Below, one piece after another: positions 1 to 32,000 of a DNA stretch of 32,000 nucleotides. This stretch comes from an archaeon (GTDB lineage Archaea; Asgardarchaeota; Thorarchaeia; Thorarchaeales; Thorarchaeaceae): positions 1 through 32,000 of the forward strand of contig JAJRZD010000081.1 in NCBI GenBank assembly GCA_024275415.1, read 5' to 3'. The translations under genes and the position numbers were made by a program. The notes under the pieces were generated by a model. That model saw only the letters and a program-made list of their open reading frames with translations, ran no database searches and was not told the DNA's origin. Each line of letters begins with the position of its first letter. The first letter of the stretch is position 1.

Positions 1-543
1 CTCATGCGGATAATCTCAACTCTACTACGACCTCACGGAGGAACAATCCTAGTATTTAACAAGAATCCACAGACTGATAGTATTACTATTAGAAGAAAGA
101 TAGGACTGATTGGTGAGAAACCTCTGCTATACAACGAATTGACTGGCAGAGAGAACCTCCATTTCTTTGGCAAGTTGTATGGGATGCGAACAGAAGAGAT
201 AGAAAAAAAGGCAAACGAACTATCAACGGTGTTCAAGATAAAGCGCTGGCTGGATGAACCAACCAAAAATCTCTCCACAGGACTAAGAAAAAGAGTGGAC
301 ATCATTCGTTCAGTACTTCACGAACCGACTCTGCTCCTGTTAGACGAGCCCTTCTCAGGATTGGACATCGACTCTACAGAGATTTTCATGGAGTTTCTTA
401 GCAAGTCCAAGGATCAAAGAACTGCTGTTCTTACAACACACAACATAGACTTAGGACGACGTATCAGCGACTCGTTCATCACTCTTCGAAAAGGAGAGGT
501 CATGAACGCGGGGGCAATCTCTGAATTTGATGGTACCATGTAA
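1..543 (+). CDS. ccmA: Heme-export ABC transporter ATP-binding subunit, 5'-truncated by the window edge
   Basis: Signature-like LSTGLRKR, Walker B LLLLDEPFSGLD and H-loop LTTH are present. Walker A is absent, so the true start lies upstream of the window. Sits directly before ccmB and ccmC. Confidence 0.85.
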   Translation, partial: LMRIISTLLRPHGGTILVFNKNPQTDSITIRRKIGLIGEKPLLYNELTGRENLHFFGKLYGMRTEEIEKKANELSTVFKIKRWLDEPTKNLSTGLRKRVDIIRSVLHEPTLLLLDEPFSGLDIDSTEIFMEFLSKSKDQRTAVLTTHNIDLGRRISDSFITLRKGEVMNAGAISEFDGTM

Positions 544-550
544 GGTGATA

Positions 551-1228
551 ATGATGACATCGTCATTCAAGGCTGCACTCGTGATTGCTGCAAAGGACAT
601 CCGATCCCAGTTCAGAAAACCATTTGAGGTCTTTGCGATGTTTCTTTTCGCTTTGATCGCTATCCTTGCGTTCGCATTTGGGATGGGAGGGGTTGTGGAT
701 CCAGAGATAGGTAGTGCCATGGTCTGGGTGATCATCTTCCTCACGGGCATGTTCGGTTTTGCACCCATATTCCTTTCAGAGGTCGAAACAGGGACACTTC
801 GTGGGATCTCCATCGCTCCGATTCCTGCGTGGGCCGTGTACATAGGCAAGGTCATCTACGGATTCTTCATGATGGGGGTCGTTGAGATATTCCTCTTGCC
901 CATGACGATGCTCCTGTTCGGGTTCGCGTTCGATCCGTTTGATCCGTTTCTTTACGCAATCTTCGTAGTAGGCACTCTGGATCTAGCAGCGGTAGGGTCG
1001 ATGGCATCTGCATTGACCATGCCATCTGAGTCTAAAGCAACGATATTCCCGTTGGTCTACTTTCCCACAGCCACCTCAGCTATCATATTATTAATCGAGT
1101 TGACTAGAGGTCTTGTCGTAGGGCCCGGACTCATCACGCTCGGATTTCTCCTACAGCTGCTCATTGGTCATCTTATTGCGATGATAACAATATCAGCAGT
1201 GATATTCCAGTATGCACTCACATCCTGA
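551..1228 (+). CDS. ccmB: Heme exporter permease CcmB
   Basis: About 6 hydrophobic segments, AKDIRSQFR and EVETGTLRG motifs, and position between ccmA and ccmC. Start placed at ATG 551 after AAGGTGAT (ORF track starts at 527). Confidence 0.85.
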   Translation: MMTSSFKAALVIAAKDIRSQFRKPFEVFAMFLFALIAILAFAFGMGGVVDPEIGSAMVWVIIFLTGMFGFAPIFLSEVETGTLRGISIAPIPAWAVYIGKVIYGFFMMGVVEIFLLPMTMLLFGFAFDPFDPFLYAIFVVGTLDLAAVGSMASALTMPSESKATIFPLVYFPTATSAIILLIELTRGLVVGPGLITLGFLLQLLIGHLIAMITISAVIFQYALTS

Positions 1229-1298
1229 AACTTAACCATGTCGAAATCTTTATCTTTGCAATCAGTTCAAATCCGGCGTCGGACAAGGAAGTGACTTA

Positions 1299-1967
1299 GT
1301 GAGGCCACATCGAATCGTCCTGTATCTGATCACAGCAATCATCGGTGTTCTGTATATCTACATGACCTGGATCTATGCACCCCCTGAAGCCACGCTTGGC
1401 GAGTCGATTCGGATTTTCTTCCAGCATGTCGCCCCTGCGCTGACGGCATATACCGCCTTTGGCGTGACCTTGATATGTGGAATCCTCTATTTGTGGCGAC
1501 AGGACATAAGAATCGATGTCCTTGGGGGGGCATCTATCAAACTAGGACTTCTATTCACCACGATAACTCTTCTCACGGGTATGCAATGGGCAGATGCCAC
1601 TTGGGGAGTGCCATGGAATTGGGATCCACGAGAAACGACCACGCTCATCCTCTGGATAGCATACGCTTGCCTGTGGGTCTACCGAGCATCGGTTAATGAC
1701 CGTGAGGTGAAAGCACAATTCGGTTCCATATTCAGCATCGTAGCCTTTCCCGCTGTGGTCTTGAGCTATCTTTCGATCCACATTTGGAACACGCTTCATC
1801 CGATAGTGATCACACCAACAGGCCTTCAAATGGGCATTGAGCATGGGCTGACAATGATGGTTTCGATGATCACCATTCTACTACTTTACGTGATACTACT
1901 GGAGCTGACCTACAGGGTTGATTCCTCTGAGGAGATGCTCCTAGAATACAGAATGACAAGGAGCTGA
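1299..1967 (+). CDS. ccmC: Cytochrome c maturation heme-handling protein CcmC
   Basis: Tryptophan-rich WWD motif WADATWGVPWNWDPRETT with flanking His residues (FFQHVAP, SIHIWNTLHP); 6 TM segments. Confidence 0.95.
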   Translation: MRPHRIVLYLITAIIGVLYIYMTWIYAPPEATLGESIRIFFQHVAPALTAYTAFGVTLICGILYLWRQDIRIDVLGGASIKLGLLFTTITLLTGMQWADATWGVPWNWDPRETTTLILWIAYACLWVYRASVNDREVKAQFGSIFSIVAFPAVVLSYLSIHIWNTLHPIVITPTGLQMGIEHGLTMMVSMITILLLYVILLELTYRVDSSEEMLLEYRMTRS

Positions 1968-1971
1968 CAAA

Positions 1972-29875: not shown

Positions 29876-29901
29876 TCTAATGAGTCTAACAATAAGAGTC
29901 G

Positions 29902-30387
29902 TTGGAGGGATATAAGAACGTGACAGCAAAGCATTGTATGATGCGACTGCATACAGGAGCCAGAAAGATATTGCGTGAAGGGTTCTTCGCGTACTTCACA
30001 ACTGGGAATCCAAGATCGTTCCCACACATCACAACAATGTTCTATATCTGGGACGAGGAATCATGTACATTCTATGTGATCACATCTGAATCGACAAAGA
30101 AGGTGAAGAATATCCAGCAGAACCCAAATGTCGCCCTCACCATTGATGAGCGTGACCCGCTGTCGCCTGCTGGTAACTGTGGTGTCTTGGTTCGTGGAAA
30201 GGCAAGAGTAATCCCCATCGAGGAGATGGGTGACATCCTCATGAACAAATACTGGGCAAAATACCTTAACGTCCTCGGACAGGGTTTTCCTATGGGCTCA
30301 CGCTTGGCGATAGAAATCACTCCTCGTGTGATTCACTATTGGAGCGGAATACACTTCTTCAAGTGGGTTGACCACAGACACGCATGA
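29902..30387 (+). CDS. Pyridoxamine 5'-phosphate oxidase-like split-barrel protein
   Basis: PHITTMFY, STKKVKNIQQNPNVALTID and GVLVRGKA motifs. The true start may be ATG 29938 or 29941. Confidence 0.8.
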   Translation: MEGYKNVTAKHCMMRLHTGARKILREGFFAYFTTGNPRSFPHITTMFYIWDEESCTFYVITSESTKKVKNIQQNPNVALTIDERDPLSPAGNCGVLVRGKARVIPIEEMGDILMNKYWAKYLNVLGQGFPMGSRLAIEITPRVIHYWSGIHFFKWVDHRHA

Positions 30388-30557
30388 CATGAACAATATC
30401 GTACATAGACTGAATCGTTATTCGAAAGGCCTTACTATAGACGCTTACTTGTAGATAGTGAAACGGGAGCCTGAGATTCACTTGATACAATCCTGCTGCC
30501 CCCCTCAGAGCTCACCAATCGCTGCATCATAAGACGACAGCATATCTTAGATATGTG

Positions 30558-31604
30558 TTACATTGCCGGAGGAGGTCGCGTCAGGTTACGGTACTGGATA
30601 GCACAAATCACGACTAGGACTATTCCCGCAATGGCCAGATAGATCAGATTTGATGTAAAACCCTTGAGGATATACCCTGCTGTGAGGCTCAGTGTAATGA
30701 GAAGATGTAGCATGATAGTCGCGGCGTTGGCGGGAACCAACCGATTCGGAGCCTCATACTCTCGCATCATGATTCGTACTCCCAAATAGCCCAACGGAAT
30801 TAACGTCAGAGCGAGGAGCGATTCAAACGCAATCAGCCCACTCACGACACAAACGACAATCCATACGAACACAGCTGCTATAAGAACAGCATAGCCCTTC
30901 GCAGCTTTCTCGCGTCCAAGCCGCACCACAACCGTTCTTTTTCCAGAATCCCTGTCTGCTGCATAGTCCTGAAATTCATTGATATAGAGAATCCCAGCAA
31001 CAAGAAGTGCTGTAGGTATCGACGCAAGTATTGGCTCAAGAAGGATGTTCTGAGCTTGAACGTAGTAGGATCCGAGTACCATCAGAACGCCAAAATTAAG
31101 GCCGATAAATATCTCCCCAATGCCACGCTTCACCAATCTGAACGGAGGTGCGGAGTAGAACAGCCCAGACGCAGCACCTATCATGCCAAAAACAAGGATC
31201 AGGATGCCTCGAGTCAGAGCGAGATATACACCTATCAAACCAGTGATTGCAAAGAAGACCATAGATTCAGCCAGCACCTCACGAGGTGTTAGAAGACCAA
31301 GCTGAATCATCCGACTCCCACCAGTGAAAGGACGGACGAATTCCGTGTTTATATCATCCGAACCCGTGTTCTCTGGAGTGTGGTCGAAATAATCGTTCGA
31401 CACATTGGCTGCAATGTGAAGAAATGCTCCTGCAATGACCGTCAAGAGAAAGACATCAAGCAGGAAAACCCCAGTCGTAGCCCAAGCTATCGCTGTGCCC
31501 AGAAAGACAGGTGAGATAGACGCGGTCAAGAATGGTGCTCTCAATTCCAGAAAGAACGCCTTCTTCTTAGATATTTGCATTGGCTCCTGAATGATTTCCG
31601 TCAT
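30558..31604 (-). CDS. menA: 1,4-dihydroxy-2-naphthoate polyprenyltransferase (UbiA family)
   Basis: ELRAPFLTAS, NVSNDYFD, GGSRMI, YSAPPFRL...GIGE and INEFQDYAADRDSGKRTVVVRLG motifs. Confidence 0.88.
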   Translation of the reverse strand: MTEIIQEPMQISKKKAFFLELRAPFLTASISPVFLGTAIAWATTGVFLLDVFLLTVIAGAFLHIAANVSNDYFDHTPENTGSDDINTEFVRPFTGGSRMIQLGLLTPREVLAESMVFFAITGLIGVYLALTRGILILVFGMIGAASGLFYSAPPFRLVKRGIGEIFIGLNFGVLMVLGSYYVQAQNILLEPILASIPTALLVAGILYINEFQDYAADRDSGKRTVVVRLGREKAAKGYAVLIAAVFVWIVVCVVSGLIAFESLLALTLIPLGYLGVRIMMREYEAPNRLVPANAATIMLHLLITLSLTAGYILKGFTSNLIYLAIAGIVLVVICAIQYRNLTRPPPAM

Positions 31605-31755
31605 CAGCTCTATGCCTCAATATGCAGTTTCGTAGATAGTCCATTCAAAACCTTTGCGGTGAGTTTTCAGAATTCCTTAAATGTAGAAAGTGTATCTGCG
31701 GAGCAACGCCAATACGAAGGCAAACCTTTTGAACTGATACGAGAAGGTCGCAAAC

Positions 31756-32000
31756 ATGGATACATTGGATTACCTTTCCGACAGACTCGACAAAACGTCG
31801 GACAGCATTTTTCTCACAGACCTTCTCAAGAATGAAGATATCAAATCACGATTAGAGATGATCAATTCAGAGATAGATATCCATCTAGGAAAGGATGGAG
31901 AACCAAAGATTCTGTACGAAACGGCAAAGCATCTCCTCAAGGCAGGCGGGAAGAGACTACGTTCGTTGTTAGTAGTGCTCTGTTGTGAAGCGGTCGGAGG
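31756..32000 (+). CDS. Polyprenyl diphosphate synthase, 3'-truncated by the window edge (not in ORF track)
   Basis: Hand-translated: MDTLDYLSDRLDK...EPKILYETAKHLLKAGGKRLRSLLVVLCCEAVG. GGKRxR is the trans-prenyltransferase N-terminal motif, and GAAGGT lies upstream. Confidence 0.85.
   Translation, partial: MDTLDYLSDRLDKTSDSIFLTDLLKNEDIKSRLEMINSEIDIHLGKDGEPKILYETAKHLLKAGGKRLRSLLVVLCCEAVG

Follow-up and report, generated by a model that had tools for sequence, protein, structure and literature searches.

The stretch of DNA considered here, referred to as the window, comprises the first 32,000 nucleotides of the 48-kb contig JAJRZD010000081.1 from an archaeal genome of the family Thorarchaeaceae (assembly GCA_024275415.1; 3.5 Mb, 92.9% complete). 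It carries a respiratory gene island that is confined to one Thorarchaeota family and is built of two layers. The core layer, found in most of the family, encodes a complex I-like operon without NuoE, NuoF, and NuoG, a fusion of a flavin adenine dinucleotide (FAD) domain to NuoB, a CCG-domain protein, a MenA-type prenyltransferase, and a prenyl synthase. The accessory layer, found in 9 of 24 relatives (~40%), encodes a multiheme cytochrome, an epimerase-like surface protein, and CcmF, together with a flavin mononucleotide (FMN) reductase and CcmECBA. We propose, with a confidence that stops slightly short of even, that the core is one machine whose two ends react with a shared lipid carrier and that the accessory layer provides it with an additional outlet, a cytochrome at the cell surface.

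Core and accessory layers of the island

Genes were identified by searches with Pfam and NCBIfam models, the NCBIfam cut-offs being used as the pass criterion (Table 1). All genes listed in a preliminary description of the window, which had been made from the sequence alone, were recovered at sensible positions. Conservation was assessed by scanning one genome per species and collecting the loci related to the FAD-NuoB fusion. The scan returned 58 loci that encode a relative of the fusion; the titles of the corresponding metagenome-assembled genomes are Thorarchaeota or generic Asgard or archaeal labels, in agreement with the earlier view of the organism as a probable Asgard archaeon. Gene order was counted at 55 species-level loci containing the fusion gene, the denominators given below being the loci with enough flanking sequence, and co-occurrence was determined in 24 genomes of the same family as the source genome.

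The CCG gene adjoins the fusion gene in 40 of 44 loci. nuoA follows the fusion gene in 45 of 47 loci and nuoD in 35 of 38, and menA or the prenyl synthase gene lies no more than 10 kb away in 23 of 29. The genes are therefore not scattered in relatives: their clustering is far beyond chance, because it is conserved across ~55 Thorarchaeota species. Among the 24 family genomes, 16 encode a full-length fusion. Genus g2 encodes an unfused FAD protein, one genome (G011) yielded a partial match only, and no orthologue of the flavoprotein, fused or split, was found in four. menA was detected in 20 of the 24; the genomes in which it was not detected are G001, with a completeness of 80%, and three of the four that lack a flavoprotein orthologue. 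Orthologues of UbiE/MenG are present in 14 of the family genomes, all of them menA-positive.

Within the accessory layer, the cytochrome gene and ccmF have identical distributions: nine relatives and the source genome encode both. The block is intact in eight relatives (cytochrome, surface protein, ccmF, and ccmE-C-B-A, with the FMN reductase gene after ccmF in some), and its neighbors differ from genome to genome: nuoN, the fusion gene, the group formed by a GGR gene, the prenyl synthase gene, and menA, or paralogs of GlcD and CCG genes. It always travels as a unit and stands beside core genes in at least five arrangements. Such repeated re-association after rearrangement speaks for a functional tie between the accessory block and the core. 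One could instead regard the clustering as a by-product of genome organization, with the cytochrome block functionally unlinked to the core, since the phyletic ranges of the two layers differ and the layers are on separate contigs in some genomes. Such a by-product would not be expected to place the block next to core genes in five or more different ways, nor to co-occur strictly with membrane proteins that are paired to the same flavoprotein family (see below), and we find this alternative barely credible. In a wider sample, CcmC/CcmF-type genes are present in 29 of 151 Asgard genomes, namely in 12 of 32 genomes of the source family and in a few other families; cytochrome c maturation thus has a patchy distribution across the phylum and is not restricted to Thorarchaeota.

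The pump, its fused flavoenzyme, and the putative lipid carrier

The complex I-like operon (positions 12296 to 23879, minus strand) has the order N-M-L-M'-I-H-D-C-K-J-A. Two of its products score above the NuoM cut-off, and the lengthened NuoL contains the D-x-x-I-x-D-G motif twice, at residues 692 and 718, i.e., 26 residues apart, in the lateral-helix region near the C-terminal helix. These features confirm the earlier assignment of the operon to the 2M type of complex I-like pumps. None of the genes of the reduced nicotinamide adenine dinucleotide (NADH) module, NuoE, NuoF, and NuoG, is present in the operon, and no match to Complex1_51K (NuoF) was found in the 92.9% complete genome.

The NuoB part of the fusion keeps the four cysteines of the N2 cluster. 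Approximately 46 protein clusters combine FAD_binding_4, FAD-oxidase_C, and NuoB; each shares at least 74% identity with the query and is annotated as NuoB or hypothetical, and the named ones are all from Thorarchaeota, except one labeled Hodarchaeota. The closest solved relatives of the FAD domain are mouse D-lactate dehydrogenase, LctD of the Acetobacterium lactate dehydrogenase/Etf complex, and glycolate oxidase (E ~1e-25 to 1e-27). A reading of the domain as a canonical D-lactate dehydrogenase was not upheld, as the metal-site motifs are lacking across the subfamily: neither G-H-x-G-D-G-N nor E-H-G is present in any part of it. The positions that we take to be the His/His/Glu metal site in the cap domain of LDHD/D2HGDH, as mapped on 8jdb, read Tyr, a Thr/Val region, and Pro in an alignment that is weak in this region.

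Outside Thorarchaeota, the closest relatives of the FAD domain (36 to 40% identity) are single-chain FAD-FeS-CCG proteins. The CCG protein, for its part, matches bacterial FAD-FeS-CCG fusions (E 1e-50 to 1e-69) in alignments that span all of it and the C-terminal half of each fusion, and it also gave weak matches to TmcB, DsrK, and HmcF; its gene is divergent from the fusion gene, and its conserved start is the Met at position 27333 (Met75 of the long open reading frame, ORF). Because the two are parts of one chain in these relatives (the "Rosetta stone" argument), the FAD domain and the CCG protein are expected to work together. Genus g2 has a GGR gene, the prenyl synthase gene, menA, the CCG gene, and the unfused FAD gene in this order, and no nuo genes are found downstream (G007 contig 3, 110001 to 130000); the FAD/CCG pair is thus linked to the carrier genes even without pump genes behind it. 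The unfused protein of g2 may represent the ancestral state or a secondary split. Relatives of the FAD protein end in an amphipathic tail, and the linker of the fusion is of the same kind, which fits an enzyme located at the membrane surface. Since the N terminus of NuoB is near the membrane in solved complex I structures, the flavoprotein is probably close to the carrier entry site and not at the NuoI end of the cluster chain.

The quinone head group is bound in Nqo4 of Thermus thermophilus by residues that we take to be Tyr87 and His38. When NuoD is aligned with Nqo4, His22 corresponds to His38, and Cys69-Met70 occupy the place of Asp86-Tyr87. All 41 Thorarchaeota sequences compared keep this site, except that one has Leu in place of Met. 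The best solved match of NuoD is MbsL of the sulfane-reducing complex MBS (211 bits compared to 194 for Nqo4), with which it shares an R-x-C motif. Cys is present in the N-terminal motif only, the second MBS Cys being absent; the C-terminal motif, D-P-Y-P-G-W-W-D-R, is complex I-like; and the membrane subunits are NuoA, H, J, K, L, M, and N, not Mrp-type as required for MBS or MBX. Judged by its residues, the NuoD site is neither a standard quinone site nor an MBS site. Among the 38 nearest NuoD cluster representatives, ~21 have the canonical Asp/Asn-Tyr pair and ~17 do not. The closest well-resolved relative belongs to an operon with A and J-K-B-C-D-H-I-M'-L-M-N, a free NuoB, and two M-type subunits, and the Thorarchaeota operon looks like one of this type from which NuoB has been moved out and fused. 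The same J-K-B-C-D-H-I-M'-L-M-N order, with a free NuoB and two M-type subunits, was observed on ENA contig k141_518116 (L084:5514-16824), where NuoD has MBS-like Cys residues in both motifs; this complex could serve as an outgroup to that of Thorarchaeota.

The unusual site raises the question of whether the pump bypasses the lipid carrier. Its Cys/Met pair could handle a non-quinone substrate, e.g., sulfane sulfur, or the complex could be of an Ehr type, with the product of MenA serving the flavoprotein/CCG enzymes only. The match to MbsL, the invariance of R-x-C in the 41 sequences, the ~17 of 38 neighbors that also do without Asp-Tyr, and the Cys residues in both NuoD motifs of the nearest well-resolved relative, with its same operon, are all in line with this possibility. 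It is opposed by the lack of the second Cys, by the complex I-like C-terminal motif and the retained equivalent of His38, by the Nuo-type membrane arm, and by menA, which both adjoins the complex and co-occurs with it. On balance, we consider a carrier-independent pump improbable, although it deserves to be kept in mind.

The presence of a lipid carrier is suggested by the MenA-type enzyme, whose sole PDB match is UBIAD1. An alternative assignment of this UbiA-family gene, as a synthase of the archaeal lipid digeranylgeranylglyceryl phosphate (DGGGP), was ruled out: the top models are all MenA, chlorophyll synthase comes next at 54 bits, and no PDB match other than UBIAD1 was obtained. The polyprenyl synthase has the small residues Ala and Ser at positions −5 and −4 before the first DDxxD motif. 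A UbiE/MenG methyltransferase is encoded elsewhere in the genome (TIGR01934, 170 bits compared to a cut-off of 158).

Genes for synthesis of the head group were sought in 41 genomes, including 25 Thorarchaeota relatives. MqnA/MqnD (PF02621) were detected in none of the 41, and the best score for MqnC was 17 bits, below the cut-off (MqnB and MqnE were not searched). For MenB, the best score was 157 bits compared to a cut-off of 343, and the matches are ordinary crotonases. MenD gave no match in the source genome and none above the cut-off in the 25 Thorarchaeota relatives (MenC, MenE, and MenH were not searched); the one genome of the sample with MenD above the cut-off belongs to another Asgard family. 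The sole chorismate-binding enzyme of the source genome is TrpE, encoded in a trp/shikimate cluster. With completeness of 90% or more and contamination of no more than 5% in 23 of the 41 genomes, these absences are unlikely to be due to incompleteness. The earlier proposal that the cell makes its own menaquinone pool is thus not supported, the outcome that had been named in advance as its refutation being the one observed: a search for the men and mqn pathways found MenA and UbiE/MenG only. The late-step genes point to a prenylated, methylated, naphthoquinone-like product, whose head group would either be imported, by salvage of 1,4-dihydroxy-2-naphthoate (DHNA) or a menadione-type compound, or be made by an unknown route. 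Some streptococci salvage DHNA. MenA-like genes (31 to 52% identity) with neither MqnA/D nor MenD above the cut-off were also seen in other Asgard families (G026, G027, G028, G033, G035, and G038), and an orphan MenA may be a wider Asgard trait.

The putative surface cytochrome and its possible connection to the core

The cytochrome is encoded by the sole ORF of the genome with more than two CXXCH motifs. Its sequence contains seven CXXCH, one CXXCM, and one CX5CH motif. A search returned 122 homologs, all at least 45% identical, and those with names bear Thorarchaeota or generic Asgard labels. In 53 sequences, the Cys residues of all nine motif positions are invariant, as is the internal His of motif 5. 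An AlphaFold2 model built from these 53 sequences had a mean predicted local distance difference test (pLDDT) score of 59, with values below 50 in the heme core and confident long helices at residues 324 to 422; for comparison with solved structures, it was replaced by a profile search of the PDB. The profile of the 53 homologs matched OcwA (PDB 6i5b) with an E value of 5.9e-23, ahead of NrfA proteins; the Pfam matches are C554 and C552. OcwA is a nine-heme, cell-surface terminal reductase of Thermincola, which joins a c554-like tetraheme to an NrfA-like pentaheme and has open sites at hemes 2 and 5 (PMC6703420).

As far as can be judged from motifs and profile, the Thorarchaeota protein has the OcwA-type arrangement of four c554-like and five NrfA-like heme sites followed by a three-helix C-terminal bundle. 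It departs from OcwA, in which both open-site hemes have a proximal His, at heme 5, where Met or Gln is found. The sequence of motif 5, which sits at the position of the active-site heme of NrfA, is C-M-H-C-M (C-M-H-C-Q in one species), compared to C-L-K-C-H in OcwA. Motif 9 is CX4-6CH, and motif 1 ranges from CX2CH to CX5CH among orthologues. In NrfA, attachment of heme to CXXCK needs a dedicated lyase, and a private, NrfE-like ccmF beside the gene of a CXXCM cytochrome is noteworthy for this reason. Variable spacing, from CX2CH to CX6CH, was seen at hemes 1 and 9 and in mono-heme proteins, which suggests that the Thorarchaeota CcmF accepts unusual heme motifs.

The protein begins with a basic stretch and a hydrophobic helix (signal or anchor), has an anchor at its C terminus, and contains 12 N-glycosylation sequons, compared to 0 to 2 in the cytoplasmic proteins. 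It therefore looks like an outward-facing, membrane-anchored glycoprotein, and these predicted features, along with OcwA as the best solved match, agree with the cell-surface location that had been proposed for it.

The similarity to NrfA prompts another reading, in which the cytochrome serves ammonification or detoxification, by reducing nitrite or hydroxylamine, and is not an outlet to insoluble or extracellular acceptors. Its C-terminal five-heme module and helices do match NrfA, the motif at the NrfA active-site heme lacks His, many relatives are named NrfA by PGAP, and OcwA itself reduces nitrite and hydroxylamine slowly (PMC6703420). Against this, CXXCK, the hallmark sought for NrfA, is absent and is replaced by CXXCM (CXXCQ in one species), and there are nine heme motifs, not five. 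The distal His, within a motif of the HP-E-Y-E type, is not invariant and is deleted in two orthologues, and the genome yielded neither an NrfH nor an NrfBCD partner. A dedicated nitrite or hydroxylamine reductase is thus an unlikely identity for the protein.

The preliminary description noted that no NrfD, NapC/NrfH, or cytochrome b is recognizable in the window, and the same holds for the genome as a whole, which gave no match to the families of classical quinol dehydrogenases and cytochrome bd (PF03916, PF03264, PF00033, PF02665, and PF01654; heme-copper oxidase was not searched). The conserved four-helix ORF between the fusion gene and nuoA was tried as a diheme cytochrome b link and ruled out, as it has one conserved His in 46 sequences. 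The best candidate is a Thorarchaeota-only protein of ~400 amino acids, predicted to consist of a signal peptide, one heme c motif immediately behind it (CXXCH, CX4CH, or CX5CH), a beta-rich domain, and a four-helix membrane domain whose invariant His residues, four to five in number, lie near both membrane faces. It has no Pfam match, and an atlas search returned only its own Thorarchaeota "hypothetical" cluster. Full-length orthologues are present in 10 of 10 ccmF-positive genomes and in 0 of 12 ccmF-negative family genomes; two further genomes, incomplete and of the same genus, also encode one. Each of these genes adjoins a VAO-type FAD gene in the island, and in one genome the gene lies directly beside that of the nine-heme cytochrome. 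On this basis, the protein may link the flavoenzymes or the carrier to the cytochrome. The copy of the source genome (contig 38, 83670 to 84887) has a CX4CH motif and also lies beside a VAO-type FAD gene.

A stand-alone four-helix domain is encoded 4 kb past the window (contig 62, 35847 to 36224), between two GlcD-like genes and with a CCG gene nearby; stand-alone copies were seen in ccm-positive genomes only. Beyond the window, the contig goes on with a GlcD-like gene, a small membrane protein gene, a second GlcD-like gene, a CCG gene, and a gene for a GGR-family reductase. A further cluster, on contig 99 (L087:1-10337), has three CCG genes, two VAO-type FAD genes, and a gene for a phytoene-desaturase-like flavoprotein in one direction; interspersed with these are genes for a 203–amino acid mono-heme surface protein and a 165–amino acid membrane protein that starts with H-P-x-F-x-H-F-H.

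In the explanation we favor, a core with two carrier-reactive ends and an optional outlet, the pump would translocate protons while connecting the carrier with a low-potential partner (probably ferredoxin, at NuoI), and the flavoprotein/CCG module would link the same carrier to a mid-potential organic couple. No other carrier-reactive enzyme was found in the genomes that lack the cytochrome; one end would therefore reduce the carrier and the other re-oxidize it. The simplest closed circuit would comprise ferredoxin, pump, carrier, CCG protein/flavoprotein, and organic couple, and it would conserve energy when run forward and be driven by the proton gradient when run in reverse. By our estimate, the four antiporter-like subunits imply ~5 H+ per two electrons, which the ~0.38 V between ferredoxin and menaquinone, calculated from textbook potentials, would roughly match. 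In genomes with the accessory layer, four-helix membrane proteins, each paired with a VAO-type flavoprotein, may supply the surface cytochrome with electrons taken from the reduced carrier or from flavoenzymes in the cytoplasm. The acceptor that the cytochrome would then reduce outside the cell could be, for example, metal oxides, humics, flavins, or nitrogen oxyanions.

Several points weigh against this explanation. In NuoD, the Tyr to which the quinone head group binds in complex I is missing, and the closest solved protein is MbsL. No known head-group pathway is encoded, and any quinone is therefore putative. The FAD domain is without the His/His/Glu metal site of D-lactate and D-2-hydroxyacid dehydrogenases, in a part of the alignment that is weak. 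The span from lactate to menaquinone, estimated from textbook potentials at ~0.12 V, is too small for a pump with four antiporter-like subunits. Last, heme b in the four-helix proteins is deduced from their conserved His residues, and no known family matches them.

The preliminary description had arranged the same parts as a linear chain, in which a flavin dehydrogenase feeds a forward-running pump and a menaquinone made by the cell, and electrons pass through a missing link to the surface cytochrome as the regular terminal step. That the named parts are all present and syntenic, that MenA and UbiE exceed their cut-offs, and that the cytochrome resembles a known terminal reductase stands in its favor. 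However, Men/Mqn head-group genes were found neither in the source genome nor in the 25 Thorarchaeota relatives, the Tyr of NuoD is replaced, and a mid-potential flavin donor could not, by our estimate, drive a pump with four antiporter-like subunits. The cytochrome and Ccm genes are, moreover, missing in 15 of 24 family genomes, most of which retain the core. Because the cytochrome is optional (9 of 24), the chain generally does not end there. We give this linear arrangement little credence.

Asgard archaea other than Heimdallarchaeia are usually modeled as ferredoxin-based fermenters or syntrophs. Respiration at the quinone level has been placed in Heimdallarchaeia only (preprint 10.1101/2024.07.04.601786), and for Sif- and Jordarchaeia, a Nuo complex lacking NuoEFG has been put forward, together with menaquinone and numerous Dld-HdrD pairs (PMC9723677). 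In the literature covered by our search, whose coverage is incomplete and does not prove novelty, no description was found of the island, the NuoB fusion, an OcwA-like Thorarchaeota cytochrome, the CXXCM motif, or the heme c/four-helix proteins. A complete respiratory system, in which a pump with a built-in flavoenzyme and a Cys/Met site, a carrier obtained by salvage or an unknown route, wiring by heme c/four-helix proteins, and a nine-heme cytochrome with Met or no protein ligand at its catalytic heme together give an Asgard archaeon extracellular electron transfer (EET), is possible but still doubtful.

If the core with its two carrier-reactive ends operates as proposed, supposed fermenters that are abundant in sediment may respire external acceptors or run proton-driven reverse electron flow. 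This bears on models of carbon and metal cycling in sediments and on the energy metabolism that was available to the archaeal ancestors of eukaryotes. The flavoenzyme-NuoB fusion, a NuoD site between MBS and complex I, and a CXXCM motif beside its own CcmF are objects for testing, and the orphan MenA points to quinone salvage or a third head-group pathway.

Other genes of the window and comparison with known systems

The features of the window are collected in Table 1.

Table 1. Genes and ORFs of the window, with the evidence for each assignment.
Feature	Positions	Strand	Evidence
ccmA (ABC ATPase; 5′ end cut by window edge)	1–543	+	Pfam ABC_tran; within conserved ccmABC-E block
ccmB	527–1228	+	Pfam CcmB, 58.6 bits
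ccmC	1299–1967	+	Pfam Cytochrom_C_asm, 94 bits
44-aa single-helix ORF at CcmD position	1972–2106	+	40–64% identity in 6 relatives, between ccmC and ccmE
ccmE, archaeal CxxxY type (C-P-S-K-Y)	2113–2508	+	Pfam CcmE; motif in sequence
FMN reductase-family flavoprotein	2522–3142	−	Pfam FMN_red, 103 bits; flanked by ccmF and ccmE in 4 of 8 related modules
HEAT-repeat protein, 551 aa	3345–5000	+	Weak HEAT/Adaptin matches
ccmF, NrfE-like heme lyase	5057–7111	−	Pfam Cytochrom_C_asm; best NCBIfam models NrfE/CcmF, below cut-offs
Surface protein, 731 aa	7112–9307	−	Signal peptide, (alpha/alpha)6 barrel, two beta-sandwich domains, membrane anchor, Arg-rich tail
59-aa ORF: signal-like helix and near copy of cytochrome C-terminal anchor	9461–9640	−	63% identity to cytochrome residues 431–473
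OcwA-like nine-heme c-type cytochrome, 473 aa	9799–11220	−	Motifs, profile match; conserved start probably Met13
PadR-family regulator	11849–12130	−	Pfam PadR, 47.7 bits; upstream of cytochrome gene, between it and nuoN, same strand as both
nuoN	12296–13795	−	Best NCBIfam NuoN, 278 bits, below cut-off
nuoM, 518 or 517 aa	13796–15352	−	TIGR01972, 400 bits (cut-off 264)
nuoL, lengthened, 773 aa	15354–17675	−	TIGR01974, 431 bits (cut-off 407)
Second nuoM (M'), 518 or 517 aa	17688–19241	−	TIGR01972, 309 bits (cut-off 264)
nuoI, two 4Fe-4S clusters	19242–19673	−	Pfam Fer4 families; best NCBIfam NuoI
nuoH	19680–20837	−	Pfam NADHdh, 282 bits
nuoD, noncanonical site	20822–21958	−	Aligned to 2fug chain 4, 6u8y chain L
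nuoC	21955–22461	−	Pfam Complex1_30kDa
nuoK	22463–22774	−	Pfam Oxidored_q2
nuoJ	22774–23394	−	Pfam Oxidored_q3
nuoA	23406–23879	−	Pfam Oxidored_q4
Conserved four-helix membrane protein	24223–24681	+	In 45 related loci between fusion gene and nuoA
Three-helix membrane protein directly downstream of fusion gene	24703–25194	−	Weakly conserved, 28–56% identity
FAD-NuoB fusion: VAO/GlcD-type FAD domain, amphipathic linker, NuoB	25191–27146	−	FAD_binding_4, FAD-oxidase_C, NuoB in one ORF
HdrD/GlcF-type CCG protein: two 4Fe-4S motifs, two CCG domains, no membrane helix	27333–28556	+	Pfam CCG, 118 bits
DUF7530 membrane domain fused to PNPOx-like split-barrel domain	28604–29875	+	Pfam; in 14 of 29 loci with enough flank
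PNPOx-family flavoprotein	29902–30387	+	Pfam PNPOx_N, 57 bits
MenA/UBIAD1-type prenyltransferase	30558–31604	−	TIGR00751, 113 bits (cut-off 102); both Asp-rich motifs conserved
Polyprenyl diphosphate synthase	31756–32000 (to contig 32781)	+	Pfam polyprenyl_synt, 221 bits, full ORF

The gene of the 731–amino acid surface protein always lies between the cytochrome gene and ccmF. The AlphaFold2 model of the protein has a pLDDT of 73, and Foldseek matched it to glucose/cellobiose 2-epimerases and AGE with target-normalized template modeling (TM) scores of 0.72 to 0.80. It contains 15 N-glycosylation sequons, and its C-terminal anchor has a P-G-F motif ahead of the Arg-rich tail. A protein atlas search gave no usable match for it; going by the modeled fold, its function at the surface is more likely to involve glycans than redox chemistry. 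The two genes between the CCG gene and menA, which encode the DUF7530-PNPOx protein and the PNPOx-family flavoprotein, could provide carrier tailoring enzymes or a membrane flavoprotein.

In the maturation block, the small ORF at the CcmD position has no Pfam CcmD match and is duplicated in two relatives. The HEAT-repeat gene is absent from all related ccm modules and is an insertion peculiar to the source genome, and no intact counterpart of the 59–amino acid ORF was found in relatives. CcmA, B, C, E (CXXXY), and F are all present, and the block contains no CcmH or CcmI. This is the streamlined archaeal form of System I, defined as CcmABCEF with a CXXXY-type CcmE and no CcmH/CcmI (PMC9084895). 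It differs from that form in being arranged as one bacterial-style block, in its unsplit, full-length CcmF, and in the conserved small ORF at the position of CcmD, a component reported to be absent from archaea (PMC9084895).

As far as the pump is concerned, 2M complex I-like enzymes have reportedly been described by Chadwick et al. (2018), and "headless" complexes of the Fpo-like/NDH-1 type are said to appear in the literature on Fpo-like enzymes. The Thorarchaeota operon resembles both in its eleven Nuo subunits without NuoEFG, its two NuoM proteins, its lengthened NuoL, and its ferredoxin-type entry at NuoI. It differs from them in the fusion of NuoB to a flavoprotein and in NuoD, whose Cys-Met takes the place of the Asp-Tyr of quinone reducers. 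Asgard cases of 2M or headless Nuo-type complexes are covered in PMC9723677 and 10.1101/2024.07.04.601786. With MBS of Pyrococcus furiosus (PDB 6U8Y), which provides the best PDB match for NuoD, the complex shares R-x-C at the former NiFe/quinone site; it lacks the second Cys, keeps the equivalent of Nqo4 His38, and has a Nuo-type arm with a lateral-helix NuoL, not an Mrp-type arm.

The flavoprotein and CCG protein resemble GlcDEF, Dld-HdrD pairs, and single-chain FAD-FeS-CCG dehydrogenases (E. coli YdiJ) in combining a VAO-type FAD protein with a partner that has two clusters and two CCG domains. The genome also has many paralogous pairs, as in Sif- and Jordarchaeia (PMC9723677). Unlike in these systems, one Thorarchaeota copy is fused to NuoB, and the subfamily lacks the LDHD His/His/Glu metal site. 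The combination of an outside c-type cytochrome, a putative membrane heme protein, and a cytoplasmic CCG protein recalls the Hmc, Tmc, and DsrMKJOP complexes of sulfate reducers; no NarI/DsrM-type cytochrome b was found in the genome, and the candidate for the membrane part is an unclassified, His-rich four-helix domain.

The cytochrome is similar to OcwA of Thermincola potens JR (PDB 6I5B) in its nine heme motifs, arranged as four plus five, in its C-terminal helix bundle, and in its predicted cell-surface location. It differs in the CXXC(M/Q) motif of heme 5, in the CX4-6CH motif of heme 9 (and of heme 1 in some relatives), and in being anchored by a C-terminal helix in an archaeal membrane. 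Thermincola uses a relay of several multiheme cytochromes, compared to the single ORF of this kind in the source genome. Last, the flavin-based EET locus of Listeria, which we take to be DmkA/DmkB/Ndh2/EetAB/PplA, likewise places a dedicated MenA-type prenyltransferase and a prenyl synthase beside a dehydrogenase and an extracellular outlet, although the dehydrogenase and the outlet proteins differ from those of the Thorarchaeota island.

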